Counted from the first letter of the stretch, positions 25,300 to 39,608 are shown. The stretch is 64,000 bases of DNA from Vulcanimicrobiales bacterium (GCA_038231455.1 JBBRLI010000013.1:1-64000), one strand, 5' to 3'. Program-made: numbers and translations. The notes: a model not told the origin generated them from the letters alone.

Positions 25300-27600
25300 A
25301 TGACACCCCTCGCTTGGATCCGCCGCGCCTTCGCGCTTGCGATCGTTCTCTCGCTCGTCGCTCCGCTCGCCGCACTCGCGGCCGACCGGGTCTACGTCGA
25401 ATGGTCGGTCAACGGCCTCACACGCGAGCCGGTGCTGGTTGTCTTCCGTAATGACGACGTCTTGGTCGAACGCGGCGATTTAACCGCCGCCGAAATTCCG
25501 CTCGACCGACACACCGGCGAGCGGATCTTCGACCACGAGTATCTATCGCTAACGTCGCTCAGCGAAATCCTCACCTACGTCCTCGACCGCAAGACGCTCG
25601 AATTACGCGTGTCGCTCAAGGCGCGCGCATTGCAGCGTCGCTCGGCGGATCTCGGTTCCGTTGAGCCGACCGATGTGAGCGTCGCGGCCACACGCAGCCT
25701 CGTGCTGAATTACGGCGTCCACGACGACAGCGTCGCCGGATTTAGCGGATCGCTCGAAGCGCGCGTCAATCTCGCGCGGGGAGTGCTCTTCGATGCAAGC
25801 GCCGTGAAGGATGAGGGGGCGACGCTGCGACGCGGCATCGCGAACCTCACCTTCGATGTGCCCGCACATCTTCGTCGCACCATCATCGGCGATACGATCG
25901 CCGGCGGCGCGGATCTCGGAGGCGGCGCGCTGCTCGGCGGGGTGACGGTGCGTCGGCAGTTCGATGAGAACCCGTACGTCATCACCTATCCGTTGCCGTC
26001 ATTACAGGCGACCGTCCTACAACCGACGCGCGCTGATTTTTTCGTGAACGGCGTGCTCGTAAAATCAATCGAGCTCGCCCCCGGAACGTACGATCTCAAT
26101 AATCTTCCGTTGCGTTCCGGTATTTCGCACGCACAGGTGGAGCTCCATTCCGCCGGCGGTACGCAGTTGCTGCTCGACTCCGTTCTCTACGGATCGGCGG
26201 GGCTGTTGCGCAAAGGTCTGACCGACTACAGCTACTCGGCGGGCGCGGTACGCAACGACGTCGAGAGCGCCGGAGATTCGTATGGCGAGCGTGCCGTCTC
26301 TGGCCGGTATCGACTCGGACTAACGAATCAATCGACGCTCGGAGCGCATGTGGAATCGACGCCGCATCTCGCCGATGCCGGGATCGAGTATGACGGAGCG
26401 CTTGCGCGCGGCGACGTGCATACCGCCGTTGCGTCGAGTAACAACGGTGGCATCGCGGGGATGGCCGCGACGGCGGGGTACTTCAGCGCCGGAATCAGCG
26501 GCGGCTTCAGCATCCTTGCGCGAATACAAACCGCGCACTTCAGCACGCTGAGTTTGCGCGCTGCCGACGACCGCGCGCTCTCGCAATTCGCCGTCTCCGC
26601 GGCGCGCGGGCTGCCCGGTCGTATCAGCGCCTCGTTTAGCCTGCAGGCAACGCAATACCGCGATAGCGGCAACGTGCAGACCGCGGTCATCGCCCTGCAG
26701 CGCTACGTGCACGATTTCAATGGAATACTCAGTTACACGGCCAACCGGCGTTCAGCCACTGGCGGCGCGCTCGCGAGCAGCGTCCAATTCTCGCTTGGAC
26801 GCGCGATCGGGCGCTCCGGGTACGCATCCGTAACCTCACAAGCCGATGACACCTCGAGAACGACGCTGCAAATCCAACGCTCCGCGACCTCGCCGCTCGA
26901 TACGCAATATTCGCTCGCACTGAGCAACAATCCATATGCGCCCGTGGGTGGAAACCTCCAAACGGGGTTTGCATTTGCAACCATCGGAGCCGCCGTGAAC
27001 GGAACCGGAAACGGTCGATATACGGAAGCGTTGAACCTGAGCGGATCGATCGTGCGGGTCGGCGCCGTGACGCTTTTCAGCCAGCCGATCCCCGATGCGT
27101 ACGCAATCGTCGAAGCACCCGGAATGGGCGGTGCAAACGTCACGTTGAACAACCAGATCGTCGCGCGGACGAATCGGGCGGGATACGCGGTCGTCCCGGG
27201 GCTTGGGTCGTACCTTCCCAGTATCGTCGGCATTTCCGATGTGAATCTGCCTTTTGATGAGTTGGTCGGCGGCGATCAACGTATCGCGCCCGGTTTCAAG
27301 GGCGCGGGCATCGTTCGCTACGCCTCGCATCGCGAACACGGAATCGTTGGATCGGCGCAGGTCCGTCGAACGGGCCGCGGCGAGCCGGCCGCGTACGGAC
27401 AGATCGAATTGCGTTTGGGTAAGGTCATCCAGACCTCACCGACCGATGCCGACGGACGATTTTATTTCGAACATCTGGCAACCGGTGTGTACGAAGCAAC
27501 GATCTCGGACACATACGGCGTGCGCTGCACCGCACAGGTGCGCATCCCAGAGTTTTCGGGCGCGCAATTCTCACTGGGGACAGTCACATGCGTCGAGTAG
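25300..27600 (+). CDS. Outer-membrane usher (CsuD/PapC-like)
   Basis: GGALLGGV, FVNG, LLRKGLTDYSYSAG, YRLGLTN, TNRAGY, C-terminal Cys pair; 766 aa. Confidence 0.88.
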   Translation: MTPLAWIRRAFALAIVLSLVAPLAALAADRVYVEWSVNGLTREPVLVVFRNDDVLVERGDLTAAEIPLDRHTGERIFDHEYLSLTSLSEILTYVLDRKTLELRVSLKARALQRRSADLGSVEPTDVSVAATRSLVLNYGVHDDSVAGFSGSLEARVNLARGVLFDASAVKDEGATLRRGIANLTFDVPAHLRRTIIGDTIAGGADLGGGALLGGVTVRRQFDENPYVITYPLPSLQATVLQPTRADFFVNGVLVKSIELAPGTYDLNNLPLRSGISHAQVELHSAGGTQLLLDSVLYGSAGLLRKGLTDYSYSAGAVRNDVESAGDSYGERAVSGRYRLGLTNQSTLGAHVESTPHLADAGIEYDGALARGDVHTAVASSNNGGIAGMAATAGYFSAGISGGFSILARIQTAHFSTLSLRAADDRALSQFAVSAARGLPGRISASFSLQATQYRDSGNVQTAVIALQRYVHDFNGILSYTANRRSATGGALASSVQFSLGRAIGRSGYASVTSQADDTSRTTLQIQRSATSPLDTQYSLALSNNPYAPVGGNLQTGFAFATIGAAVNGTGNGRYTEALNLSGSIVRVGAVTLFSQPIPDAYAIVEAPGMGGANVTLNNQIVARTNRAGYAVVPGLGSYLPSIVGISDVNLPFDELVGGDQRIAPGFKGAGIVRYASHREHGIVGSAQVRRTGRGEPAAYGQIELRLGKVIQTSPTDADGRFYFEHLATGVYEATISDTYGVRCTAQVRIPEFSGAQFSLGTVTCVE

Positions 27601-28433: not shown

Positions 28434-28748
28434 ATGATCAATCTCACGCGTGCGACGCTCGTCGCCTGCGGTGTCTTTACCATTGCCGTCTCGTCGGCGC
28501 TCCCGGCGGTCGCCTCGGATTCGGGAATCGTTTCGTTTCGCTGCGCCTCCGCTGATGCCGGGTGCAACGTCGAAATACGATTGGGCACCCTGGATAGCCC
28601 CGATCAGGCGGCCCCGTACGGCTCAAAACACATCGACAAAGACTCCACCTGGGACGTCGATTCCGGCGGCCTCTACGTGTTTTACAAAGGCAAAGACGGC
28701 TCGTGGCAGCGCGTTGCCGGAAATCGCGATTCGAAAATCGACCTCTGA
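28434..28748 (+). CDS. Small secreted hypothetical protein
   Basis: Signal peptide ending AVA, Cys pair, host-like codon usage. Confidence 0.55.
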   Translation: MINLTRATLVACGVFTIAVSSALPAVASDSGIVSFRCASADAGCNVEIRLGTLDSPDQAAPYGSKHIDKDSTWDVDSGGLYVFYKGKDGSWQRVAGNRDSKIDL

Positions 28749-28774
28749 TTTGTCGTGAAATGTGCGGGTCGCTC

Positions 28775-28804
28775 TTGACAGCGGCCTGCACATCCCGGTA
28801 GGCT
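28775..28804 (+). promoter_or_regulatory. sigma70 promoter of the aromatic leader / DAHP synthase
   Basis: TTGACA-18 nt-TAGGCT; leader ATG 7 nt downstream. Confidence 0.7.
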
Positions 28805-28811
28805 CAGCGTA

Positions 28812-28874
28812 ATGAACGCGAAGTGGTTTAGCTACTGGTATTTTACGTCGCTCCAACGGATCGGCGCCGGTTAG
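28812..28874 (+). CDS. Aromatic-amino-acid attenuator leader peptide MNAKWFSYWYFTSLQRIGAG
   Basis: Six of seven consecutive codons are Trp/Phe/Tyr; lies upstream of a terminator and DAHP synthase. Confidence 0.85.
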   Translation: MNAKWFSYWYFTSLQRIGAG

Positions 28875-28910
28875 CGTTTTCTCACTTCTTCGATAGCGAT
28901 TTTGAGAACA

Positions 28911-28941
28911 AAGCTGCCCGCCGATGCGGGCGGCTTTTTTT
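28911..28941 (+). terminator. Attenuator terminator before DAHP synthase
   Basis: AAGCTGCCCGC-CGAT-GCGGGCGGCTT followed by a T tract. Confidence 0.85.
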
Positions 28942-28966
28942 ATTCCCCACAGAGGAGCCTCGACCG

Positions 28967-29806
28967 ATGATCGCCCCGTGCACGCCCTGGACCCCATCGC
29001 TCTTGCCGGCAAGCGCCGAGCAGTGGCCGCTCGTCGCGCGGCGCGGTAACGAATCGACGCTCGTGCACGTCGGTGATGCCGTCTTTGGGGCGGAGGATTT
29101 CGTCGTGATCGGCGGGCCGTGTTCGGTCGAATCGCCTGCGCAGATCGACGCTGCCGCGGCGGCCGTCGCGCGCTCCGGCGGCAAGCTGCTCCGTGGCGGC
29201 GCGTTCAAGCCGCGCACCAATCCGTACGCGTTCCAGGGGCTGGGTTGGGATGGGGTCGATCTGCTCGCGGCCGCCGGACGCCGTTACGGGCTACCGGTGG
29301 TGAGTGAAGTGATGTCGATCGACCAAGTCGATCGCATGGCAGAATCCATCGACGTGCTGCAAGTTGGGGCGCGCAATATGCAAAACTTCGATCTCTTACG
29401 TGCCGTCGGCCGTTCGCATCGACCGGTCTTACTCAAACGCGGCATGAGTGCGACGCTCGACGAACTGCTCTGCGCTGCAGAATACATCGTCAACGAAGGC
29501 AACAAGAATGTGATCTTGTGCGAGCGTGGGATTCGCACGTTCGAAACCTCGACGCGCAATACGCTCGATCTCGGCGCAATCGTCGTGCTCCGCGAACGCA
29601 CGCACTTGCCGATCATCGTCGATCCCTCGCACGCGGTAGGTGTACGGCGTTGGATTCCACCGCTCTGTCGCGCGGCGCAAGCCGTCGGCGCGCATGGCTT
29701 GATGATTGAAGTGCATCCCGAACCGTGCGAGGCGCTCTGCGACCGCGACCAAGCCCTCGACCTTGAGGACTTCGCCGCGGTCATGGCATCGCTTAAGCGG
29801 GGCTGA
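28967..29806 (+). CDS. aroF: DAHP synthase, type I-beta, catalytic domain only
   Basis: [45 protein letters not shown]; 279 aa. Confidence 0.92.
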
Positions 29807-31109
29807 GCTCGCGGCGAAAGGATTCCGTCGCTGCGAAGGCTTGCGCGAGATCGGCGATGAGATCGTCCGCATCTTCGATGCCAACCGAGAGTCGTACGAG
29901 ATCGGGCGTGACGCCGGCCTCGATTTGTTCGACGACCGTAAGCTGTTGGTGCGTCGTCGTCGATGGGTGGATCGCAAGCGACTTTGCATCGCCGACGTTC
30001 GCGAGCAGAGAGAACAGCTTGAGTGCATCGATGAACGCCTTGGCCGCGGCAGCGCCGCCTTTCACGCCGAACGTAAGGATCGCGCCCTGCCCTTTGGGCA
30101 AGTACTTCTTGGCAAGCGGATGAGCGCGATCACCTTCGAGTCCCGGATACTGCACCCACACGACCTCGCCGCGGCCTTGTAAGAACGTTGCGACGCGCAG
30201 CGCGTTTGTCGAGTGGCGCTCGACGCGTAAGCCGAGCGTCTCGAGGCCCTGAAGAAGAAGCCAGCCGTTGAACGGTGAGAGCGAGGATCCCAAGTCTCGC
30301 AGCAACTGGACCCGTGCTTTGACGATGAATGCCATGTTCCCGAACGAGGCTACGTAGCGAACGCCATGATACGACGGATCGGGGTCGGTGAGTTCGGGGA
30401 ATTTTCCCGATGCGGCCCAATCGAAGTTGCCGCCGTCGACGATGACGCCGCCGATTGTCGTTCCGTGTCCGCCGATAAATTTCGTCGCCGAGTGGGTGAC
30501 GACGTTTGCGCCGTGTTTGATCGGATTGCTCAGATACGGCGTCGCAAGCGTGTTATCGACGATGAGCGGGATCTTCGCTTCGTGGGCGATAGCGGCCACC
30601 GCTTCGATGTCGAGTACGTCGACTTTCGGATTGCCGATGGTCTCTGCAAAAATCGCCTTCGTATTGGGTTTGATCGCGTTTTTGAAATTCGCGAGCTTAC
30701 CCGGGTCGACGAGCGTCACCTCGATGCCGAATTTTGGCAGCGTGTGGACGAAGGCGGAGTGCGTCCCGCCGTACAGCGATGCGGAGCTTACGATGTGATC
30801 GCCTGCGCGGGCGATGTTGAGAATCGCGAAGATGTTCGCCGCTTGTCCTGAGGCGACGGCAAGTGCACCAACGCCGCCTTCGAGGACGGCGAGCCGCTGT
30901 TCGAGCACGTCGTTTGTGGGGTTCATGATACGCGTGTAGATGTTGCCGAACTCTTGGAGTCCGAAGAGACGCTCCGCGTGCGCGGTATCATCGAAGGTGT
31001 AGGACGTCGTTTGATAGATTGGAACGGCCCGGGCCTTCGTCGTTGGGTCGCCGCTATGACCCGCGTGAATTGCTGCGGTATCGAACTTGTACGCGTGCTC
31101 GTCGGACAT
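29793..31109 (-). CDS. metY: O-acetylhomoserine/O-acetylserine sulfhydrylase
   Basis: [20 protein letters not shown] lysine [28 protein letters not shown]. Confidence 0.9.
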
Positions 31110-31147
31110 CGGTGTTCCTCGCTTGTGAGTGGCGAAAGATGGAGTGG

Positions 31148-31187
31148 AAAGAAGAAGCCCCGCAGCCGGTGTCCGGTGCGGGGCTTC
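31148..31187 (-). terminator. Attenuator terminator before metY
   Basis: Minus strand GAAGCCCCGCA...TGCGGGGCTTC followed by TTCTTT. Confidence 0.75.
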
Positions 31188-31212
31188 GTTTATTCGGTTG
31201 CTGCGGTTGCTG

Positions 31213-31290
31213 CTAGCCGACGAAAACCCGACACCGGTCCATAATGGTGGTGCTCGTGCAGGTCATCGTCGTCATCCAGGCGGCGTTCAT
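31213..31290 (-). CDS. Met/Thr/Cys-rich attenuator leader peptide [25 protein letters not shown]
   Basis: Three internal Met, six Thr, two Cys; 3' half complementary to the terminator. Confidence 0.75.
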
Positions 31291-31296
31291 GTGAGC

Positions 31297-32373
31297 CTAG
31301 GAGTAACACGGGACGAGTCGCCCTGTCAAGGCATCGGTGAACGCGCGTGAGGAAAGCGAGGGTTCACCGGGGCCGACTAAATCCGCCGTACGGGCGCCGG
31401 CCGCGTAGGTGGCTCGAACGGCTTCCTCGATCGCGCGCGCGTTTGCCTCATCGCCGAGGCTGAAGCGCAAGAGCAGGGCGGCGGAGAGGATCGCTGCGGT
31501 GGGATTGGCGATCCCGAGGCCCGCGATATCGGGTGCCGTGCCGGCGATCGGCTCGTAGAGGCCGAATTTGCCACCGGACGCGGCACGCGTGCCGACGCTC
31601 GCGCTCGGCGCCGTTCCGATCGATCCGCCAAGTGCTGCGGCCTCATCGGAGAGAATGTCGCCGAACATATTTTCCATCACGAGCACATCGAAGCGGCCGG
31701 GGTCGCGCACCAACTGCATCGCGGCGTTATCGACGAGCAGATGATCGAAGGCCACATCCGGATAGTCGGCCGCAACGCGAATGGCCGTCTTACGCCACAG
31801 TTGCGAGTTGACCAAGACGTTCACTTTGTCGACGGAGGTCAACCGTTTGGAACGCGTTCGTGCAAGCTCGAATGCGAAGCGCACAACACGCTCGATATCG
31901 GGCGCACGGTAACTCATCGTCTCGCACGCACACTCGACTCCATCGATCGTCTCGATCGTTTTCTCACCGAAGTACAGTCCGCCGGTCAGTTCGCGGACGA
32001 TGATGAGGTCGAGCTGACTTGCCAGATCCGCGCGCAGCGGCGAGCGCGATTCGAGCCCGGCGAACATCGTCGCCGGGCGCACGTTTGCGTAGAGGTCGAA
32101 GTGTTTGCGTAAAGTGAGCAGCGCGTACTCGGGTCGCTGCTGCGGCGATGCGCCGTCGAACTGTGTGCCACCGACAGCACCGAAGAGAATTGCATCTGCC
32201 CGCTCGCAGCCCGCAAGCGTCGCATCCGGCAGTGAGGTTCCGTGCGCGGCAACCGCCGCGGCACCGACAGCAAATTCTTCAAAGGCGAGATCCGGCCGCA
32301 CCAGCGCGAGCACGCGCTGCGCGCAGGCCGTGACTTCGGGACCGATCCCATCTCCTGGGAGAACGGCGATCAT
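31297..32373 (-). CDS. leuB: 3-isopropylmalate dehydrogenase
   Basis: [50 protein letters not shown] overlaps the leuD TGA. Confidence 0.95.
31300..31329 (-). promoter_or_regulatory. Putative sigma70 promoter inside the 3' end of leuB
   Basis: TTGACA-18 nt-(TGn)TACTCC; leader ATG 9 nt downstream. Confidence 0.5.
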
Positions 32374-32894
32374 CGCGCGTGCTGCCACGCGCGCACGGTA
32401 TCGATTTTACTGGCAAGATACGGTAAGAATCCGCCGCCCAAGATGAACTGCTTGCGCAGTTCGTCGAGTTCAAATGCGACCGGTGCTTCGTCATCCGCTT
32501 GTACGGTTTGCTTCGCGACGTCGATCGTGATCGAGCGCGCGCGGGCGAAACCCTCGATCATCGCATCCGGTACGACCACCGGCACGATTGCGTTCGTATA
32601 CGCATTCTCAAGAAAAATGCGCGCAAAGCTCGACGCGATGACCGCGCGGAAGCCGCGAGCCGTGAGCGCCCACGCCGCATGCTCGCGCGAACTGCCGCAG
32701 CCGAAGTTTTCGCCGGCCACAACGATGTTCGCCCCGGGCGACTCCGCCAGGAGCTCGGCGCCGCCGGCCATGCCGGTGAAGAGATGTTCGCCCAAGCCCT
32801 CGGTATCGATGCCGGTGAGGTATCGTGCGGGGATGATTTGGTCGGTATCGACGTTTGCCCGACGGAGCGGAAGCGGTTTGCCGGTCACGATCAT
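32370..32894 (-). CDS. leuD: 3-isopropylmalate dehydratase small subunit
   Basis: NVDTDQIIPA, NFGCGSSREHA, SFARIF. Confidence 0.95.
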   Translation of the reverse strand: MIVTGKPLPLRRANVDTDQIIPARYLTGIDTEGLGEHLFTGMAGGAELLAESPGANIVVAGENFGCGSSREHAAWALTARGFRAVIASSFARIFLENAYTNAIVPVVVPDAMIEGFARARSITIDVAKQTVQADDEAPVAFELDELRKQFILGGGFLPYLASKIDTVRAWQHAR

Positions 32895-34228
32895 ACGAGT
32901 GCCTCTTCGCGAATGGGCGCGCCGATGTCGGCTGGCGATGCGATACGACCGAGTAGCGCGCTTGCTGCTACGATCGCGGGTGATGCGAGATGGACGCGTC
33001 CGCCATCGCCCATCCGGCCTTGGAAATTGCGGTTCGATGAAGAGATGCAACGCATCCCCGGAGCGAGTACGCCCATCGACATCCCCAAACACGGACCGCA
33101 CGACGAGTGCGTCCAAAGCGCCCCCGCATCTTGAAAAATTTCGTGCAGACCTTCGCGTTCCGCAGCACGTTTGACGGCCTGCGATCCCGGCGTGATGATC
33201 GTCGGAATAACGACGTTCTTTCCACGCAGAACGCGCGCCGCTTCGCGCAAATCGCCGATGCGCGAATTGGTACAAGAGCCGATGAACGCTTGGTCGAGCA
33301 CGATCTCGCTCATCTTATCGCCAACCCGCAAGTCCATATAGTCGAGTGAAGCTGCGGCGGCACCGACCGGGACGACGCCATCGATCGGTGCGTTCTCGCC
33401 GGGATTCGTCCCCCAGGTTACCAGCGGACGAACCGCGTTTCCATCGATCGTGACGCTCGCCGCGTAGCGTGCGTCGCGATCGGCGCGTAAGAAAAGCCAG
33501 TCACTAGGAGCTTCTTGCGTTTTCTCAAGATAGGCCGCGGTCACGCCGTCGGCCGCAATAATTCCAGTCGTCGCCCCCGCCTCGATTGCCATATTGCAAA
33601 GCGTCATACGCTGCTCCATGTCGAGCGAGTCGATCGCCGAGCCCGTGTACTCCAAAACGTACCCCGTGCCGCCACGAAAACCGATCTCGGCGATCACGGC
33701 GAGCGCCAAGTCTTTCGCGCTAGCGGACGGGTGCAGTTCTCCCTTTACCTCGACGCGCATAACTTTGGGTCGCTGTAAGATCAGACATCCCGCAAGCATC
33801 GCGCCCGCTTGCGCGGTGGTCCCGATGCCCAGCGCAAAGGCACCAAAAGCGCCGAGCGTACACGTGTGGCTATCTCCACAGCAAACCGTCGATCCGGGCG
33901 TGACGTAGCCGCGCTCGGGGACGATAACATGGCAGATTCCGCCCTCGCCGATATCGTAGAGCCGGATGCCCTGACGTTTTGCCCACGTGCGCAAGACCTG
34001 CGCTTGAATCGCCGTGGCCGTGTCTTTCGCGGGCGACACGTGATCGTTAACCGCAACGATACGGTCGCGGTCGTAGAGGCAGTCGCCATACTCTTTCTCG
34101 ATCGCGATCGCGCCCTGGGGTGTGGTAATCTCGTGCGCGACGACGCGGTCCATGAAGACCAGCGCGTTGCCGCCGGGAAGTTCTTCGACGACATGCGCGT
34201 CCCAAATTTTATCGAAGAGCGAACGCAT
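32891..34228 (-). CDS. leuC: 3-isopropylmalate dehydratase large subunit
   Basis: GDSHTCTLGA, TLCNMAIEAGA, IGSCTN, CGPCLG, SNRNFQGRMG. Confidence 0.95.
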   Translation of the reverse strand: MRSLFDKIWDAHVVEELPGGNALVFMDRVVAHEITTPQGAIAIEKEYGDCLYDRDRIVAVNDHVSPAKDTATAIQAQVLRTWAKRQGIRLYDIGEGGICHVIVPERGYVTPGSTVCCGDSHTCTLGAFGAFALGIGTTAQAGAMLAGCLILQRPKVMRVEVKGELHPSASAKDLALAVIAEIGFRGGTGYVLEYTGSAIDSLDMEQRMTLCNMAIEAGATTGIIAADGVTAAYLEKTQEAPSDWLFLRADRDARYAASVTIDGNAVRPLVTWGTNPGENAPIDGVVPVGAAAASLDYMDLRVGDKMSEIVLDQAFIGSCTNSRIGDLREAARVLRGKNVVIPTIITPGSQAVKRAAEREGLHEIFQDAGALWTHSSCGPCLGMSMGVLAPGMRCISSSNRNFQGRMGDGGRVHLASPAIVAASALLGRIASPADIGAPIREEALV

Positions 34229-35384
34229 CGGAGGCCTCCGTGGTAATCGCATGCGCGATCGCAAGCAAATCGTCGTCGGTGGCATTGCGCCGCGTCTCGA
34301 CGAATTTACGGAATGCTTCTTCGAAGCGCGCCGACCCTTCGGCGCCGAAGATGATACCCAAATCCGAGATGCGCGTGAGCAAGGCGTTGCGGCCCGAGTT
34401 GCGTGAGAGCGGCAAACGCGTCGCCGCACCGACGCTACTTGGGTCGACGATTTCGTAGGTTCGGCGATCTTTGATCATCCCGTCCTGATGGATGCCGGAT
34501 TCGTGCGCGAAGGCATTCGCTCCGACGATCGCCTTGTTTTTCTGCACTGGCATGTCGGTTGCACGTGAGACCTCAGCCGAGAGTTCGGCGATGCGGTCGC
34601 TGCGAAATCCGGTCGTACATTTGAAACGGTCGTGCCGGATCGTCATTGCGACGGCAACTTCTTCGAGCGCGCAGTTGCCCGCCCGCTCGCCGATCCCGTT
34701 AATCGTGCACTCGACTTGGCGCGCACCCGCGCCGACCGCCGAAAGGGCGTTTGCCGTTGCAAGACCCAGATCGTCGTGCGTGTGGACGCTCACGATCACG
34801 TTCTCGATCCCCGGGACTTCGCGGACGATGCGTTCCACCAAGTCCGCCATCTCTGCGGGTGTCGTGTAACCGACGGTATCCGGGACGTTGATCGTGGTGG
34901 CACCGGCGCGAATCGCTGTTGCGTACACCGCAAACAATAACGCCGAATCGCTGCGGGTAGCGTCTTCGGCAGAGAACTCGATGTTATCGCATTTGGACTT
35001 CGCATACGCAACGTTGGTCGCGACTCGCGCAATGACGTCTTCGCGCGTCGTGCGCAGTTTGCGCTCGATGTGAATATCGCTCGTCGCAATGAAGACGTGC
35101 AGGCGCGGTGATTGCGCTTCTTTGATCGACTCCCACGCGATGTCGATATCGCCCGTGGTACAGCGCGCGAGGGCCGCGATCTGACTGCCGCGCACGTTTC
35201 GGGCAATCTCGGCCACGCTCTTCGCGACGATCGGCGAGGCTGCGGGAAAGCCGGCCTCGATGATGTCGACGCCGGCGTCGGCGAGCATATGCGCGATGCG
35301 CAGCCGGTCATCCGGGGACATCGTCGCGCCGGGCGACTGTTCGCCATCACGCAGGGTCGTATCAAAGAGATAAACGCGGTCCAT
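34209..35384 (-). CDS. leuA: 2-isopropylmalate synthase, short form (391 aa)
   Basis: DTTLRDGEQSPG, HTHDDLG, GIGERAGN, AHESGIHQDG; ends shortly after subdomain II. Confidence 0.92.
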   Translation of the reverse strand: MDRVYLFDTTLRDGEQSPGATMSPDDRLRIAHMLADAGVDIIEAGFPAASPIVAKSVAEIARNVRGSQIAALARCTTGDIDIAWESIKEAQSPRLHVFIATSDIHIERKLRTTREDVIARVATNVAYAKSKCDNIEFSAEDATRSDSALLFAVYATAIRAGATTINVPDTVGYTTPAEMADLVERIVREVPGIENVIVSVHTHDDLGLATANALSAVGAGARQVECTINGIGERAGNCALEEVAVAMTIRHDRFKCTTGFRSDRIAELSAEVSRATDMPVQKNKAIVGANAFAHESGIHQDGMIKDRRTYEIVDPSSVGAATRLPLSRNSGRNALLTRISDLGIIFGAEGSARFEEAFRKFVETRRNATDDDLLAIAHAITTEASDAFALR

Positions 35385-35398
35385 GCTAGTTCTCCAAG

Positions 35399-35437
35399 AA
35401 AAAAAGAAGCGAGGTCTCCGACTCGGGAGCCTCGCTT
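35399..35437 (-). terminator. Internal attenuator terminator before leuA
   Basis: Minus strand AAGCGAGG...CCTCGCTT followed by C and seven T. Confidence 0.85.
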
Positions 35438-35464
35438 GGTGTAATGCGGGCGTAACGAATCGGG

Positions 35465-35518
35465 CTATCGAGGCCGGTAGCGAAGTCGGAGTAGAAGCGG
35501 AAGTCGGCGCAGGATCAT
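35465..35518 (-). CDS. Leu attenuator leader peptide MILRRLPLLLRLRYRPR
   Basis: Six Leu codons including a CTT-CTA-CTC run; ATG overlaps the TGA of the upstream ACT gene. Confidence 0.82.
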   Translation of the reverse strand: MILRRLPLLLRLRYRPR

Positions 35519-35733
35519 GTTGGGGCGAAGGCCGCGTCTTGCGCCGCGATCTGCGAGATTTTTGCATCGAGGCGGCGCAGTGCATCGGCGTCGCCTTCGA
35601 GCTTGAACGTTGCAAGCGTCAAATCGTCGTTGGTGCGCGCGTCGATACGCGCAAGCGAACAGCCAAAGCGCGGAGCGAGGTTGATGATCCGTGCGAGCAG
35701 ACGCTGGTCGCGGAGGACGACAGAGATGGTCAC
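35515..35733 (-). CDS. Acetolactate synthase small subunit, single ACT domain (IlvM/IlvN-like)
   Basis: 72 aa with ACT-like pattern (LLARII...RFG); GTG overlaps the ilvB TGA. Confidence 0.75.
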   Translation of the reverse strand: MTISVVLRDQRLLARIINLAPRFGCSLARIDARTNDDLTLATFKLEGDADALRRLDAKISQIAAQDAAFAPT

Positions 35734-37409
35734 GGTTTCGACTCGATCCCCTCATCGATCGCGCCGCCGGCCGGGATCATCGGCCACACGTTTTCGCTCG
35801 GATAGCAGATGCAGTGCAAAAGCATCGGGCCATCGTGGGCGAGCAACGCTTTGAGCGCTGCATCGACGTCCTCTTCGCGATCGACGCTATCGGCATGGAT
35901 GTCGTAGGCCTTGGCGATTGCGACGAAGTCCGGATTGTCGGAGAGATTGGTTGCCGAGTAGCGCTCGTTGTAGAAGAGTTCTTGCCACTGGCGCACCATG
36001 CCGAGATTGCGGTTGTCGATCAAGAGGATCTTGACCCGAACCTTGTACCGGCGCAGCGTCGCAAGTTCCGTGAGCGACATTTGAAAACCGCCGTCGCCGA
36101 CAACCGTCACGACCTCTTTGTCGGGCTGGCCAAACGCAGCGCCGATTGCGGCGGGCAAGCCGAACCCCATCGCGCCGAGTCCGGCCGAGGTTGCAAAGTT
36201 CCGCGGATGATCGGGGCGCACGCGCTGCGCGGCCCACATCTGGTGCTGGCCGACGTCGGTCGTCACCACCGTGCTGCCCGGCGCAATTGCGAAAAGCCGA
36301 TCCATGATCGTCGTCGCCGAGAGTCCATCAACTTTGTCGCTCGGCGGCGGCGCCCACATGTTGGCGACTTCATCGCCCCAGTCATCGAAGCGCGGAATGC
36401 GCGATCGTTCGAGTTCGTCGCAGAGCGCACGCAGCGTCGTTGCAAGGTCTCCCGCAAGGGACACGCTCGCCGGGATGATTTTCGAGAATTCGCTCGGGTC
36501 GATGTCGGCGTGAATGATCGCCGCTTCTTTCGCGAAGCGATCGGTGCGGCCGGTGACGCGATCGTCGAAGCGCATGCCGAGCGCCAGAATCACATCGGCG
36601 CGGTGCACCGAAAGATTGGCGGCTTTCGAGCCGTGCATGCCGAGCATGCCGAGGTAATGCCGGTCGCCGGGTTCGCCTGCGCCGAGGCCGTTAATCGTCG
36701 CGGTGTGCGGCAAGCCGAGCATCGAGACGAGGCGGCGATACTGTTCGAGCGCGTCTTCGCCGCGCCGGACGCCGCCGCCGATGATCGCAAGCGGACGTTT
36801 CGCTCGCCGCAGCAAGTCGGCTGCGCGAGCGATGGCGTTTCGATCGAGGGTTGGAAGCGCGGGCATCGCAATCGTGAACGTCGGCGCGGACGCCTCGTCG
36901 ATTGCGGCTTTGAGCACGTCACTTGGAATATCGACGAGCACCGGCCCGGGGCGTCCGCCGGATGCAATTGCGAATGCGCGGCGCATTTCTCGCGCGATCA
37001 ACTGCGGATCGCGGATGAGAATGTTGGCTTTGGTGACCGGCTGGGTGATGGCACAGACGTCGGCTTCTTGGAAGCCATCGGTGCCCATCAGATTGCTGCG
37101 AACTTGCCCCGTGATCGCGACGAGCGGAATCGAGTCCATCGATGCATCCAGGAGGCCGGTCACGAGGTTCGTTGCGCCCGGACCCGACGTCGCACAGCAC
37201 ACGCCGACGCGCCCCGTGGTGCGCGCGAAGCCGCTTGCGGCAAAGACCGCAGCCTGCTCGTGACGCACGAGGATGTGTCGGATGCTGTGCCCGTAGAGCG
37301 CATCGTAGAGCGGCATGATCGCTCCGCCCGGATAGCCGAAGATCGTCTGCACGCCTTCGGCTTCAAGCGCTTCGAGCACCGCGTGCGCCCCGCCGCGAAT
37401 CGCGATCAT
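35730..37409 (-). CDS. ilvB: Acetolactate synthase large subunit
   Basis: FGYPGGA, RHEQ, TSGPGATN, DVGQHQMW, GDGGFQM, LGMVRQWQ. Confidence 0.95.
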   Translation of the reverse strand: MIAIRGGAHAVLEALEAEGVQTIFGYPGGAIMPLYDALYGHSIRHILVRHEQAAVFAASGFARTTGRVGVCCATSGPGATNLVTGLLDASMDSIPLVAITGQVRSNLMGTDGFQEADVCAITQPVTKANILIRDPQLIAREMRRAFAIASGGRPGPVLVDIPSDVLKAAIDEASAPTFTIAMPALPTLDRNAIARAADLLRRAKRPLAIIGGGVRRGEDALEQYRRLVSMLGLPHTATINGLGAGEPGDRHYLGMLGMHGSKAANLSVHRADVILALGMRFDDRVTGRTDRFAKEAAIIHADIDPSEFSKIIPASVSLAGDLATTLRALCDELERSRIPRFDDWGDEVANMWAPPPSDKVDGLSATTIMDRLFAIAPGSTVVTTDVGQHQMWAAQRVRPDHPRNFATSAGLGAMGFGLPAAIGAAFGQPDKEVVTVVGDGGFQMSLTELATLRRYKVRVKILLIDNRNLGMVRQWQELFYNERYSATNLSDNPDFVAIAKAYDIHADSVDREEDVDAALKALLAHDGPMLLHCICYPSENVWPMIPAGGAIDEGIESKP

Positions 37410-38465
37410 CTACATCACCCGGAACGGGATGGTGTCGCTCGAACCGCCGCCGCCGGCCGAGGCCATAGACTTTTTGTCGGCATCGAACCACGGCATCAGT
37501 TTGCGTAACTGCGCGCCGATCGCTTCAATCGGATGCGCCGCGGCCTTTTTCCGGTATTCGTTAAACGATGGTTTGCCCGCCGCGTGTTCGGCGACCCAGG
37601 TGCGCGCGAACGTGCCATCTTGAATGTCACTCAGAATTTTCTTCATCGCGGCGCGCGTTTCGTCCGTGACGATTTTCGGACCGGCGGTATAGTCGCCGAA
37701 CTTCGCCGTGTTGCTGATCGAGCCGCGCATACCCTCGATGCCTTTTTCATACATCAAGTCGATGATGAGTTTCATCTCGTGCAGGCACTCGAAGTACGCC
37801 ATTTCCGGCGCATAGCCGGCCTCGGTGAGCGTTTCGAATCCGGCGGTGATGAGCGCGGAGACGCCGCCGCAGAGAACCGCCTGTTCGCCAAAGAGATCCG
37901 TTTCGGTCTCTTCTTTAAACGTTGTCTCGAGGATACCGGCGCGACCGCCGCCGATCGCCGAGGCATACGCCATCGCCGTTTTGCGCGCGGTGCCGCTCGG
38001 GTCTTGATGGATCGCGATCAAACACGGCACGCCGCGCCCGGCTTCATATTCGGAGCGTACGAGACGCCCCGGACCTTTGGGTGCGATCATGAAGACATCG
38101 TTTGATTTCGGCGGCACGATGGTGCCAAAGTGAATCCCGAAACCGTGCGCGAACACCAGCGCCGCGCCGGGTTTGAGATGATCGAGGATGCTGCGCAGGT
38201 ACGTTGCGGGCTGTTCCTCATCGGGGATCAGCATCATCACGATGTCGGCGCTTGCGGCGGCTTCCTCGACGGTCTTGACGGCGAGGTAGTCGCGGCGCGC
38301 TTCATCGCGTGATGCCGAACCTTCGCGCAGTCCGACAACCACGCTATAACCGGAGTCGGTCAGGTTGAGCGCATGCGCTCGGCCTTGGCTGCCGTATCCG
38401 ATGATCGCAATGGTCTTGCCGTCGAGTGCTCGCCGATCGATATCGGCGTCGTAATAGGCCTTCAT
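37410..38465 (-). CDS. ilvC: Ketol-acid reductoisomerase
   Basis: [43 protein letters not shown]. Confidence 0.96.
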
Positions 38466-38494
38466 GCCATCCCCTACTGCTGTCATTGAGTGAT

Positions 38495-38530
38495 AAAAAA
38501 AGCCCCCGCCGATAACCGGCGGGGGCTTTT
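38495..38530 (-). terminator. Attenuator terminator before ilvC
   Basis: Minus strand AAAAGCCCCCGCCG-GTTAT-CGGCGGGGGCTTTTTTT. Confidence 0.88.
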
Positions 38531-38553
38531 ACATTCGTGCTAGCTTCTAGCGC

Positions 38554-38634
38554 CTATGTGAAAGCAAACCGCCGGTCCGTAATAAGGACCGCAAGAAGGA
38601 GGCTAACGACAAGGAGGAGCGAGCGGCTGAACAT
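38554..38634 (-). CDS. Branched-chain attenuator leader peptide MFSRSLLLVVSLLLAVLITDRRFAFT
   Basis: Seven Leu, three Val, one Ile; 3' part complementary to the terminator 5' arm. Confidence 0.85.
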   Translation of the reverse strand: MFSRSLLLVVSLLLAVLITDRRFAFT

Positions 38635-38642
38635 CTTTGCGG

Positions 38643-38672
38643 TTTGTAGCACGCAACGCTGCAGAGTGTCAA
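38643..38672 (-). promoter_or_regulatory. sigma70 promoter of the ilv-leu operon
   Basis: TTGACA-18 nt-(TGn)TACAAA; leader ATG 8 nt downstream. Confidence 0.65.
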
Positions 38673-38687
38673 CGGTTTCTGCGCGTC

Positions 38688-39608
38688 GTGTCGGAAAAAA
38701 AATCGGCGGGACGCGGCATTGCGGCGCTCCTGGCGCTGAGTTTGCTCTGGGGTTCGAATTGGGCCGTGATGAAAATTGCGCTGCGTGACGTCGGTCCGAT
38801 CGCATTTGCCGCGATGCGTAACGGACTTGGTGCCGTGGCCTTATTCGCCGTTCTACTGGCGTTGCATCGAGCCACCCGTCCAGTCGGTTGGCGCGGATTG
38901 ATCGTGCTCGGTCTGCTGCAGACGACCGGACAAGTGGGACTTGCGACGTGGGCGCTTACGGCGGGCGGTGCGGGCAAAGTTGCGGTGCTTGTCTACACGA
39001 TGCCGTTTTGGGTGGTACTGCTGGCGTGGCCGCTACTCGGCGAGCGCATCGTGCGGCTGCAGTGGGTTGCACTTACGTTCGGCCTCGTGGGCATCGTCGC
39101 AATTGTCGATCCGCGTACGCTCGGCGGCGCGTCGCTCGGATCCGATCTGCTCGCGATCGGCAGCGGCGTGTGCTGGGCGCTCGGCTCGATCGTTGCCAAA
39201 CGCCTGCGACTCCAAGGCGACGTCCTCAACATCACCGCCTGGCAAATGCTCTTCGGGTCGATTCCGCTCGTCGTGCTCGCCGTGTTGATCCCGGAGCGTG
39301 CGATCTTCTGGTCGGCAAACTTCACTTGGGCGCTGGCGTACAACGTCGTCCCGGCGACCGCCCTTGCCTGGGTTCTCTGGATGTTCGCGCTGCGCAATCT
39401 CAAAGCGAGCGTCGCCGCGATGGGTTCGCTCTTGAACCCCATCGTCGGTGTCGGGGTCGCCTGGCTCGTCCTCGGCGACCGCCCCGGGGGGCTTGAATTT
39501 GCCGGGATCGCGACGATCGCTATCGCCCTGCTCGTCGTTTCGTTCGGTCCGGGCCGCGGTGCCACGGATGCGCGCGCGAAACCCGACGTGCAATCTGCTC
39601 GTGTATGA
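38688..39608 (+). CDS. EamA/DMT family transporter
   Basis: LLWGSNW, about ten TM helices, ITAWQMLFG, LNPIVGV. Start uncertain. Confidence 0.88.
   Translation: MSEKKSAGRGIAALLALSLLWGSNWAVMKIALRDVGPIAFAAMRNGLGAVALFAVLLALHRATRPVGWRGLIVLGLLQTTGQVGLATWALTAGGAGKVAVLVYTMPFWVVLLAWPLLGERIVRLQWVALTFGLVGIVAIVDPRTLGGASLGSDLLAIGSGVCWALGSIVAKRLRLQGDVLNITAWQMLFGSIPLVVLAVLIPERAIFWSANFTWALAYNVVPATALAWVLWMFALRNLKASVAAMGSLLNPIVGVGVAWLVLGDRPGGLEFAGIATIAIALLVVSFGPGRGATDARAKPDVQSARV

Follow-up and report, generated by a model that had tools for sequence, protein, structure and literature searches.

How do the amino acid biosynthesis genes of a little-studied bacterial lineage respond to the supply of their own end products? 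We examined this question in a stretch of 64,000 nucleotides (nt), here called the window, from JBBRLI010000013.1 (positions 1-64000; assembly GCA_038231455.1, Vulcanimicrobiales bacterium). Its source is an uncultured bacterium of soil or sediment. In the region studied (28775-38672), the genes for DAHP synthase (aroF), metY, leuA and ilvC are each preceded by a short open reading frame (ORF) and a terminator hairpin. From the sequence and its comparison with relatives, we consider with good confidence that these four units are ribosome-mediated transcription attenuators. This mechanism is very likely at the aromatic, methionine (met) and branched-chain (ilv) units; at leuA it is probable.

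The original prediction, made from the DNA alone, regarded the genome as Firmicutes-like. This was refuted, because the nearest named relative of its ilvB came from a metagenome-assembled genome (MAG) of Vulcanimicrobiaceae, with 63% identity, and a 'Candidatus Cybelea' MAG was also among the matches. We take Vulcanimicrobiaceae, following the taxonomy of GTDB, to belong to Eremiobacterota (WPS-2). This phylum is widespread in soil and sediment and has almost no experimental genetics; we found no published work on its gene regulation, and a full-text literature search returned no account of attenuators or leader peptides in Eremiobacterota. Our comparison set contained 40 relative genomes, of which 24 were from the same family (f1), 5 from the same order (f2) and 11 from the same class (f3), and all of them are kin. 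G000 denotes the window's own genome and G001 a genome of the same genus that is 92% complete.

The four leaders and their terminators

The four short ORFs that had been proposed before the DAHP synthase gene, metY, leuA and ilvC were all found in place. Their codons match the end products of the downstream pathways, and an intrinsic terminator follows each of them, as follows.

28775-28804, plus strand: promoter-like site of the aroF unit, with TTGACA at 28775-28780, an 18-nt spacer and TAGGCT at 28799-28804, ending 7 nt ahead of the ATG
28812-28874, plus strand: aromatic leader ORF MNAKWFSYWYFTSLQRIGAG, with Trp, Phe and Tyr at codons 5-11 (6 of 7 residues)
28859-28866, plus strand: core of the aromatic antiterminator strand, GATCGGCG, straddling the end of the leader ORF
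28910-28944, plus strand: aromatic intrinsic terminator, a 12-bp stem and seven Ts (near 28938-28944), -21.9 kcal/mol
31329-31324, minus strand: TTGACA of the metY promoter-like site, followed by an 18-nt spacer, a TG-extended TACTCC and 9 nt to the ATG; it lies inside the 3' end of leuB
31290-31213, minus strand: metY leader ORF, with Met, Thr or Cys at 10 of 12 residues
About 31238-31208, minus strand: metY antiterminator strand, pairing with the 5' arm of the terminator
31187-31147, minus strand: metY terminator, with the hairpin at 31187-31154 and the T-run near 31153-31147, -30.0 kcal/mol
35518-35465, minus strand: leucine leader ORF MILRRLPLLLRLRYRPR, with 6 Leu in 10 residues
35476-35470, minus strand: candidate leuA antiterminator strand GGCCTCG, with a seven-base match (GGCCTCG/CGAGGCT)
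35437-35399, minus strand: leuA terminator, with the hairpin at 35437-35407 and seven Ts near 35405-35399, -19.2 kcal/mol
38672-38643, minus strand: ilv promoter-like site, with TTGACA at 38672-38667, an 18-nt spacer, TACAAA at 38648-38643 and 8 nt to the ATG
38634-38554, minus strand: branched-chain leader ORF MFSRSLLLVVSLLLAVLITDRRFAFT, with Leu, Val or Ile at 11 of 13 residues
38592-38586, minus strand: ilv region 1, pairing with region 2
38578-38569, minus strand: core of ilv region 2, which extends to about 38547; its 2:3 helix covaries
38530-38494, minus strand: ilv terminator, a 14-bp stem and seven Ts (near 38497-38494), -28.2 kcal/mol

The enrichment of the metY leader in Met, Thr and Cys had a binomial P of 1.2e-9 against a genome background of 8.6%. 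No Shine-Dalgarno sequence was read ahead of the leader ATGs of the four units. Such sequences (GAGGAG, GAGGAA, GGAGAA and GGGGA) stand ahead of the four structural genes, 3' of the hairpins and outside them.

The leaders had also been described as mostly leaderless. The geometry of the promoter-like sites would fit this for aroF and ilvC and, less well, for metY, but not for leuA, where the ATG overlaps the stop codon of an upstream ORF (ATGA). In the aroF unit, 7 nt separate the end of the -10 hexamer from the ATG, and the transcript should thus start at or beside this ATG; G001 keeps the same geometry. Near the leuA leader ATG, reading the sequence by eye, we saw neither a promoter-like site nor a Shine-Dalgarno sequence. 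Because of this and of the ATGA overlap, translation of the leuA leader probably depends on coupling to the 72-codon ORF before it (35733-35515, minus strand), whose own GTG overlaps the stop codon of ilvB and whose TGA overlaps the leader ATG. This ORF had no Pfam or NCBIfam match. However, tblastn found it after ilvB at 13 of 16 relatives' loci, and we regard it as a real gene because of this conservation; restart after its termination would therefore be a reasonable way of loading ribosomes on the leuA leader. Judging from its position, it may encode a minimal small or regulatory subunit of acetolactate synthase.

Pairing between leader and terminator

Each leader had further been predicted to be complementary, in its 3' part, to its terminator. 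We tested the 3' part of the leader against the 5' arm of the terminator with 300 dinucleotide shuffles. Strong complementarity was obtained for ilvC (z-score -4.0) and metY (z -3.7), and in neither case did any of the 300 shuffles reach as low a value; the prediction was thus upheld for these two units, in part for aroF and not for leuA, to which we return below. Counted from the ATG of the window's ilv leader, the run of regulatory codons spans nt 16-54, region 1 covers nt 43-49 and region 2 begins at nt 57; the stop codon (nt 79-81) falls within the extended 2:3 duplex. When the 3' arm of the terminator was omitted, region 2 paired with the 5' arm in the fold of the whole pre-terminator transcript (-40.0 kcal/mol). 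By analogy with the classical model, a ribosome stalled on the ilv run would free region 2, and one at the stop codon would cover it.

The metY leaders of the window and G001 differ at 13 positions. One compensatory change converts a C-G pair of the antiterminator into U-A: region 2 changes from C to U and the 5' arm from G to A. A third change, again from C to U, falls within the 3' arm of the terminator.

For the ilv leaders, the relatives offered more material. Their gene order is ilvB, a small ORF and ilvC, so the comparable leader site is upstream of ilvB. Among 18 ilvB loci, one was the window itself, in which ilvC precedes ilvB, one was cut off upstream and one was a paralogue with 35% identity, which left 15 informative loci. 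An ORF of 19-27 codons rich in Leu, Val and Ile was present at all 15, across two families, and all 15 had a strong hairpin about 20-65 nt before ilvB, with a clear T-run in 14. Together with the window, all 16 ilv leaders follow a TTGACA-like hexamer, a spacer of 17-18 nt and a TAnnnN hexamer that ends 7-13 nt before the ATG. In all 16, the 3' end of the leader forms a duplex with the 5' arm and loop of the terminator, with z from -1.5 to -4.5 (300 dinucleotide shuffles).

The 16 leaders were aligned with MAFFT (alignment A1), and the antiterminator helix was taken as eight pairs, columns 58-65 with 118-125. A standard pair is formed in 96.1% of the alignment cells of this helix, compared with 13.9-51.5% in slid controls. 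Compensatory changes occur in four of the eight pairs; pair 59-124, for example, is UA in 6 leaders, AU in 4, GC in 4 and GU in 2. The covariation score was 0.386, compared to 0.173 in shuffles, and no shuffle of 500 scored as high, a count that is not a probability because kin are not independent. RNAalifold proposed the same helix, unprompted, as the consensus structure of A1. Cognate duplexes were stronger on average than non-cognate ones (-24.4 against -20.7 kcal/mol), and the cognate duplex was the best in 5 of 16 cases; this ranking discriminates weakly, and the arms are similar across the genomes.

Codon choice in the 16 ilv leaders is unusual. Of their 68 Leu codons 33 are CTT, and of their 26 Ile codons 22 are ATT, whereas in 767 long ORFs of G000 these two codons have shares of 15% and 21%. 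Constraints from RNA structure may contribute to this preference. A CCTTATT motif is nearly invariant in the leaders of A1.

Leaders at aromatic, metY and leuA loci of relatives

Aromatic-rich leaders were found at 14 of 30 DAHP synthase loci examined. At six, including the window and G001, a script found an aromatic-rich ORF with a terminator; inspection by eye added two, a leader with WWW in G021 and one with Trp and Tyr in the f3 genome G031; and a further six lie about 1 kb upstream of the DAHP synthase domain, ahead of genes that Pfam identified as fusions of prephenate dehydratase, ACT and DAHP synthase (PDT-ACT-DAHP synthase). In other genera, a strand CGGTGAGG overlaps the stop codon and is complementary to CCCTCACCG of the terminator, and the Tyr-Trp-Tyr codons form a 1:2 hairpin with CGGTGAGG. 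The fusion itself is seen in many relatives (L217, L223 and L247; loci L106-L113), with DAHP synthase behind prephenate dehydratase and ACT in one frame of about 590-630 residues; the DAHP synthase of the window is a separate protein of 279 residues.

Leaders rich in Met and Cys occurred at 7 of 30 metY loci examined. In three of these (the window, G001 and G014) the leader is directly upstream of metY, and in four it is ahead of the gene that precedes metY. This gene is presumably homoserine dehydrogenase (hom), judging from its N-terminus and from Pfam on a similar case (L265).

Among ten leuA loci, a clear Leu leader was present at five, two were ambiguous, one was cut off and two had none. 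In four genomes of the sister family f2, leuA is preceded by Leu-rich leaders whose 1:2 hairpin is strong, whose regions 2 and 3 can pair (CGAAGCGG with CCGCTTCG) and whose terminators are very strong. As to the genes themselves, ilvC was found in 12, ilvB in 11 and this type of leuA in 4 of the 24 same-family genomes, and G001 is among those in which none of the three was found. These gaps could reflect branched-chain auxotrophy or divergent enzymes.

A scaffold shared across pathways

The 16 ilv leaders served to build a covariance model, R1, whose sole structure is the antiterminator helix. Of 151 genomes drawn from across the phylum, 49 contained a match, distributed as follows.

Own family (f1) without G000: 47 of 71 genomes
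f2: 1 of 1 genome
Other 19 families: 0 of 78 genomes

The model does not reach every attenuator, since an aromatic leader was seen by eye in an f3 genome. From 69 R1 loci we obtained 73 matches, 69 of them full length. Sixty-five of the full-length matches begin with ATG, and in nearly all a TTGACA-like -35 hexamer and a spacer of 17-18 nt lead to a -10-like hexamer that lies 7-12 nt ahead of the ATG. A strict version of this promoter stood at 22 of 65 R1 leaders, compared with 17 of 1547 random ATGs. Across all 73 matches, 91.6% of the helix cells are paired and six of eight pairs show compensatory changes; the alignment behind these figures was fitted to R1 and favours it.

The genes downstream of the matches were sorted into ORF groups and identified by Pfam on representatives (only one in some groups); the class of leader was read per locus and is not uniform everywhere.

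Leu/Val/Ile leader: ilvB-type ORFs, 17 loci
Leu/Val/Ile leader: ilvC-type ORFs, 8 loci
Aromatic leader: PDT-ACT-DAHP synthase fusions, 6 loci
Tyr-rich leader: prephenate dehydrogenase, 4 loci
Aromatic leader: EPSP synthase, 1 locus
YYY to YYYYYY leader: protein of 259 residues with no Pfam or NCBIfam match, 10 loci
Met/Cys leader: NMT1-type binding proteins, 6 loci
Met/Cys leader: PAPS reductase, 4 loci
Met/Cys leader: sulfite reductase, 2 loci
Met/Cys leader: TauE, NlpA/MetQ and homoserine dehydrogenase, 1 locus each
Ile-rich leader: PALP+ACT threonine dehydratase, 1 locus
Leader containing Thr and Met: aspartokinase-like protein, 1 locus

Three further downstream ORFs were singletons without a family. 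The leaders with three to six Tyr codons stand at L241:101-1038, L229, L240, L242, L249, L253-L255, L257 and L258. In a protein atlas, the protein of about 259 residues behind them falls near heme-oxygenase-like, TenA and PqqC clusters with a score of 0.94-0.95, which is a lead only.

Attenuation of the trp/leu/ilv type, dependent on the ribosome and set-wide in this lineage, is thus backed by conserved leaders, by covariation and by the match between codons and gene function. Conserved regulatory codons were found upstream of the relatives' genes, and a covarying antiterminator helix in the ilv leaders. We suggest, with somewhat less belief than doubt, that one ancestral leaderless scaffold was copied and re-coded many times in Vulcanimicrobiaceae and its sister family, forming a single ribosome-read regulon that replaces T-boxes, riboswitches and repressors. 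In such a scaffold the ATG would be at +1 and be followed by a regulatory run; a G-N-Y-CGG-Y-G strand would lie close to the stop codon, and the terminator would complement this strand with its 5' arm and loop. If this is true, the regulon would cover branched-chain, leucine, isoleucine, aromatic, tyrosine, methionine/cysteine, sulfur-assimilation and aspartokinase genes. Among its members would be a mixed Met/Thr/Cys leader before metY, poly-Tyr leaders before a heme-oxygenase-like protein and a leader coupled by stop and start codons within an operon, none of which we found in print.

Search of the window's own genome

In G000 we scanned 1404 predicted terminators and 1908 small ORFs upstream of them for residue enrichment. 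The aroF leader ranked about third genome-wide, ilvC about fifth and leuA about twentieth; enrichment alone is not decisive, because the ranked list also holds obvious false positives. One candidate that we rejected is a TTTTTT 'threonine leader' at G000:C12:2621-2701, which is an alternative frame in the 3' end of a 426-codon ORF, with its terminator between convergent genes. A strict scan for promoter, ATG and terminator gave only six matches; the ilvC leader was not among them, since it has TACAAA as its -10 hexamer. A simple promoter scanner found no leader promoter, because it demands T in the last position and a hexamer like TATAAT, and of the four terminators it listed that of aroF alone.

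A fifth putative attenuator was found in the same genome.

G000:C1:450684-450818 (L193:4685-4819), minus strand: TTGACG, an 18-nt spacer, TAGGCT, 7 nt to the ATG, and a terminator

Its leader, MSVTVCCTMCIMCRPTGDR, is rich in Cys and Met and has the leaderless geometry, and R1 also matches it. The gene behind it encodes an NMT1-type binding protein (Pfam), and two more ORFs follow on the same strand.

Proposed mechanism and alternative explanations

We propose that RNA polymerase starts at the leader ATG or a few bases from it in the aroF, metY and ilvC units, and that in the leuA unit a ribosome finishing the 72-codon ORF restarts on the overlapping ATG. The ribosome would translate the short frame while the polymerase advances. 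With charged tRNAs plentiful, it would reach the stop codon and cover region 2, the terminator (3:4) would form, and termination would fall 15-45 nt before the structural gene. With charged tRNAs for Trp, Phe and Tyr, for Met, Thr and Cys, for Leu, or for Leu, Val and Ile scarce, the ribosome would stall on the regulatory codons and break the 1:2 hairpin; the freed region 2 would then pair with the 5' arm and loop of the terminator (2:3), and the polymerase would read through. In this account the starts of transcription, the translation of the short frames and the effect of starvation are inferred from the sequence. A search of public sequencing runs turned up a DNA metagenome, possibly the source of the window, but no RNA run with the locus. 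Since the minus-strand array has internal leaders, control would be tiered along one co-directional array.

Several observations weigh against this reading. The -10 hexamer of metY (TACTCC) is poor and its T-run is interrupted (TTCTTCTTT). The 2:3 complementarity of aroF is moderate (z -1.5, with 24 of 300 shuffles as low), and that of leuA is not above chance (z -0.5, 83 of 300 as low); in the minimum-free-energy fold of leuA without the 3' arm, the 5' arm of the terminator is paired elsewhere. The leuA unit is the weakest of the four. In one R1 locus (L235), the residues of the leader do not fit the PAPS reductase downstream. The compared genomes are kin, so that counts across them overstate independence. 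In G000 we found neither a leader nor a terminator before trpE, hisG, pheA, hom, the second DAHP synthase gene (C3) or the second metY (C29), and the attenuator system therefore covers only part of amino acid biosynthesis.

Some of the hairpins, mostly those of leuA and metY, might be ordinary operon-end terminators that adjoin short ORFs by chance. The leuA terminator could end a transcript of ilvC, ilvB and the 72-codon ORF, the metY hairpin follows leuB, and the leuA leader, besides its chance-level 2:3 pairing, has only six Leu codons and a rank of about twentieth in a list with false positives. However, no promoter-like site lies between the terminator and leuA or metY (24 and about 40 nt), so both genes need read-through, and for leuA we see no other promoter besides the route through the leader and terminator. 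Leu-rich leaders with a clear 1:2, 2:3 and 3:4 design precede leuA in the sister family, Met/Cys-rich leaders precede metY or hom-metY in six other genomes, and the metY antiterminator shows the compensatory change between G000 and G001. We therefore consider a chance arrangement very unlikely. It is also very unlikely that the units act on translation, with a stalled ribosome opening a structure that hides the downstream ribosome-binding site. Such control has been shown for leaderless sensory short ORFs of Mycobacterium smegmatis (10.1101/834739), and the interrupted T-run of metY would agree with it. In our units, however, a G+C-rich hairpin is always followed directly by a T-run, the Shine-Dalgarno sequences lie downstream of the hairpins and outside them, and the covarying partner of the leader is the 5' arm and loop of the terminator.

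A sensor other than the ribosome is highly improbable. T-boxes, riboswitches and RNA-binding proteins are the usual amino acid sensors in many Gram-positive lineages, and a T-box-like tRNA contact, a riboswitch or a protein could control the terminators with the short ORFs irrelevant. Yet Rfam, searched at E up to 1, gave no T-box or riboswitch match in 28500-39000, and neither the window nor 18 metY loci of relatives gave a match to any Rfam family at the gathering score; moreover, the ORFs keep their frame, regulatory residues and stop position while the sequence diverges. That the short ORFs encode functional small proteins, such as membrane peptides, is scarcely to be expected at all. The ilv leader peptides are indeed strongly hydrophobic, but the residue content of the leaders tracks the downstream pathway in at least ten gene classes, the peptide outside the regulatory run is poorly conserved, and the preference for minor codons fits sensing rather than efficient expression. 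Attenuation by a translating ribosome remains the reading that we prefer.

Relation to known attenuators

Enterobacterial trpL, leuL, ilvL/ivbL, thrL, pheL and hisL (Rfam RF00513, RF00512, RF00506, RF01859, RF00514) follow a logic that the units described here share: regulatory codons, 1:2, 2:3 and 3:4 pairings as alternatives to one another, and a terminator of the intrinsic type. In Escherichia coli, DAHP synthase and the methionine genes are under protein repressors. Unlike the leaders of the window, the enterobacterial ones have a 5' untranslated region with a Shine-Dalgarno sequence. The enterobacterial Rfam models also fail here; sub-threshold matches were obtained for the ilvC leader only, namely Phe_leader (the best, 26.6 bits with a cut-off of 55), His_leader (26.2, cut-off 49) and Leu_leader (23.3, cut-off 50).

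A closer parallel is found in Actinobacteria. Streptomyces lividans has eight leaderless leader peptides, including ilvL (ilvBHC), leuL (leuA) and trpL (trpE), and its metL, which contains Met and Thr, precedes metNIQ (PMC8079986). In Corynebacterium glutamicum, leader peptides precede ilvBNC, trpE, leuA and aroF, the last with Phe-Tyr-Phe, and the translation of a leader without a ribosome-binding site is attributed to Morbach 2000 (PMC4046766). In mycobacteria, leaderless polycysteine ORFs stand ahead of sulfur and cysteine genes as a ribosome-read regulon and control them by exposing a hidden ribosome-binding site (Canestrari et al., bioRxiv 10.1101/834739). Our units are like the actinobacterial ones in having a short ORF that, outside the leuA unit, is predicted to open the transcript, no ribosome-binding site, end-product codons and mostly a hairpin with a U-run, and in the genes controlled (the ilvB operon, leuA, DAHP synthase and a methionine-related operon). 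They differ in belonging to another phylum, in sharing one covarying antiterminator scaffold across pathways, in a met leader that mixes codons for Met, Thr and Cys and stands ahead of metY or hom-metY, and in the leuA leader, which lies within an operon and overlaps the preceding stop codon. The Met/Cys leaders before cysH, sulfite reductase and binding-protein genes recall the mycobacterial polycysteine ORFs, but in contrast to the release of a ribosome-binding site described there, the units here carry intrinsic terminators.

Attenuators of this kind are thus already known, also without a leader and for three of the four target genes. What appears to be new is the lineage, the size of the set with its uniform scaffold, the Met/Thr/Cys and poly-Tyr specificities and the stop-coupled leader within an operon. 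The textbook mechanism of attenuation is unchanged by our finding, which adds further evidence that leaderless attenuators are not confined to Actinobacteria. It provides a sequence-level handle on amino acid and sulfur sensing in Eremiobacterota, for which the covariance model already finds about 70 elements. The amino acid sensed by a leader may also help to assign functions to genes such as that of the 259-residue protein behind the poly-Tyr leaders.

Gene layout of the region

The window has a G+C content of about 61%. Its genes, identified by Pfam unless noted, are the following.

28967-29806, plus strand: DAHP synthase (DAHP_synth_1), with GAGGAG 9 nt ahead of the ATG
29793-31109, minus strand: metY-type O-acetylhomoserine sulfhydrylase (Cys_Met_Meta_PP)
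31297-32388, minus strand: leuB
32370-33275, on the strand of the array (minus): ORF in the leuD position, named from position
32891-34429, minus strand: ORF containing leuC (aconitase family), with a provisional start
34209-35384, minus strand: leuA (HMGL-like and HCS_D2)
35730-37409, minus strand: ilvB (TPP enzyme N, M and C domains)
37410-38465, minus strand: ilvC (KARI_N and KARI_C)

The minus-strand array runs ilvC, ilvB, the 72-codon ORF, the leucine leader (leuL), leuA, leuC, the ORF in the leuD position, leuB, the met leader (metL) and metY, all co-directional. Just upstream of the region (25300-27600, plus strand) is an ORF of 766 residues with outer-membrane usher and CarboxypepD_reg-like domains (Pfam).

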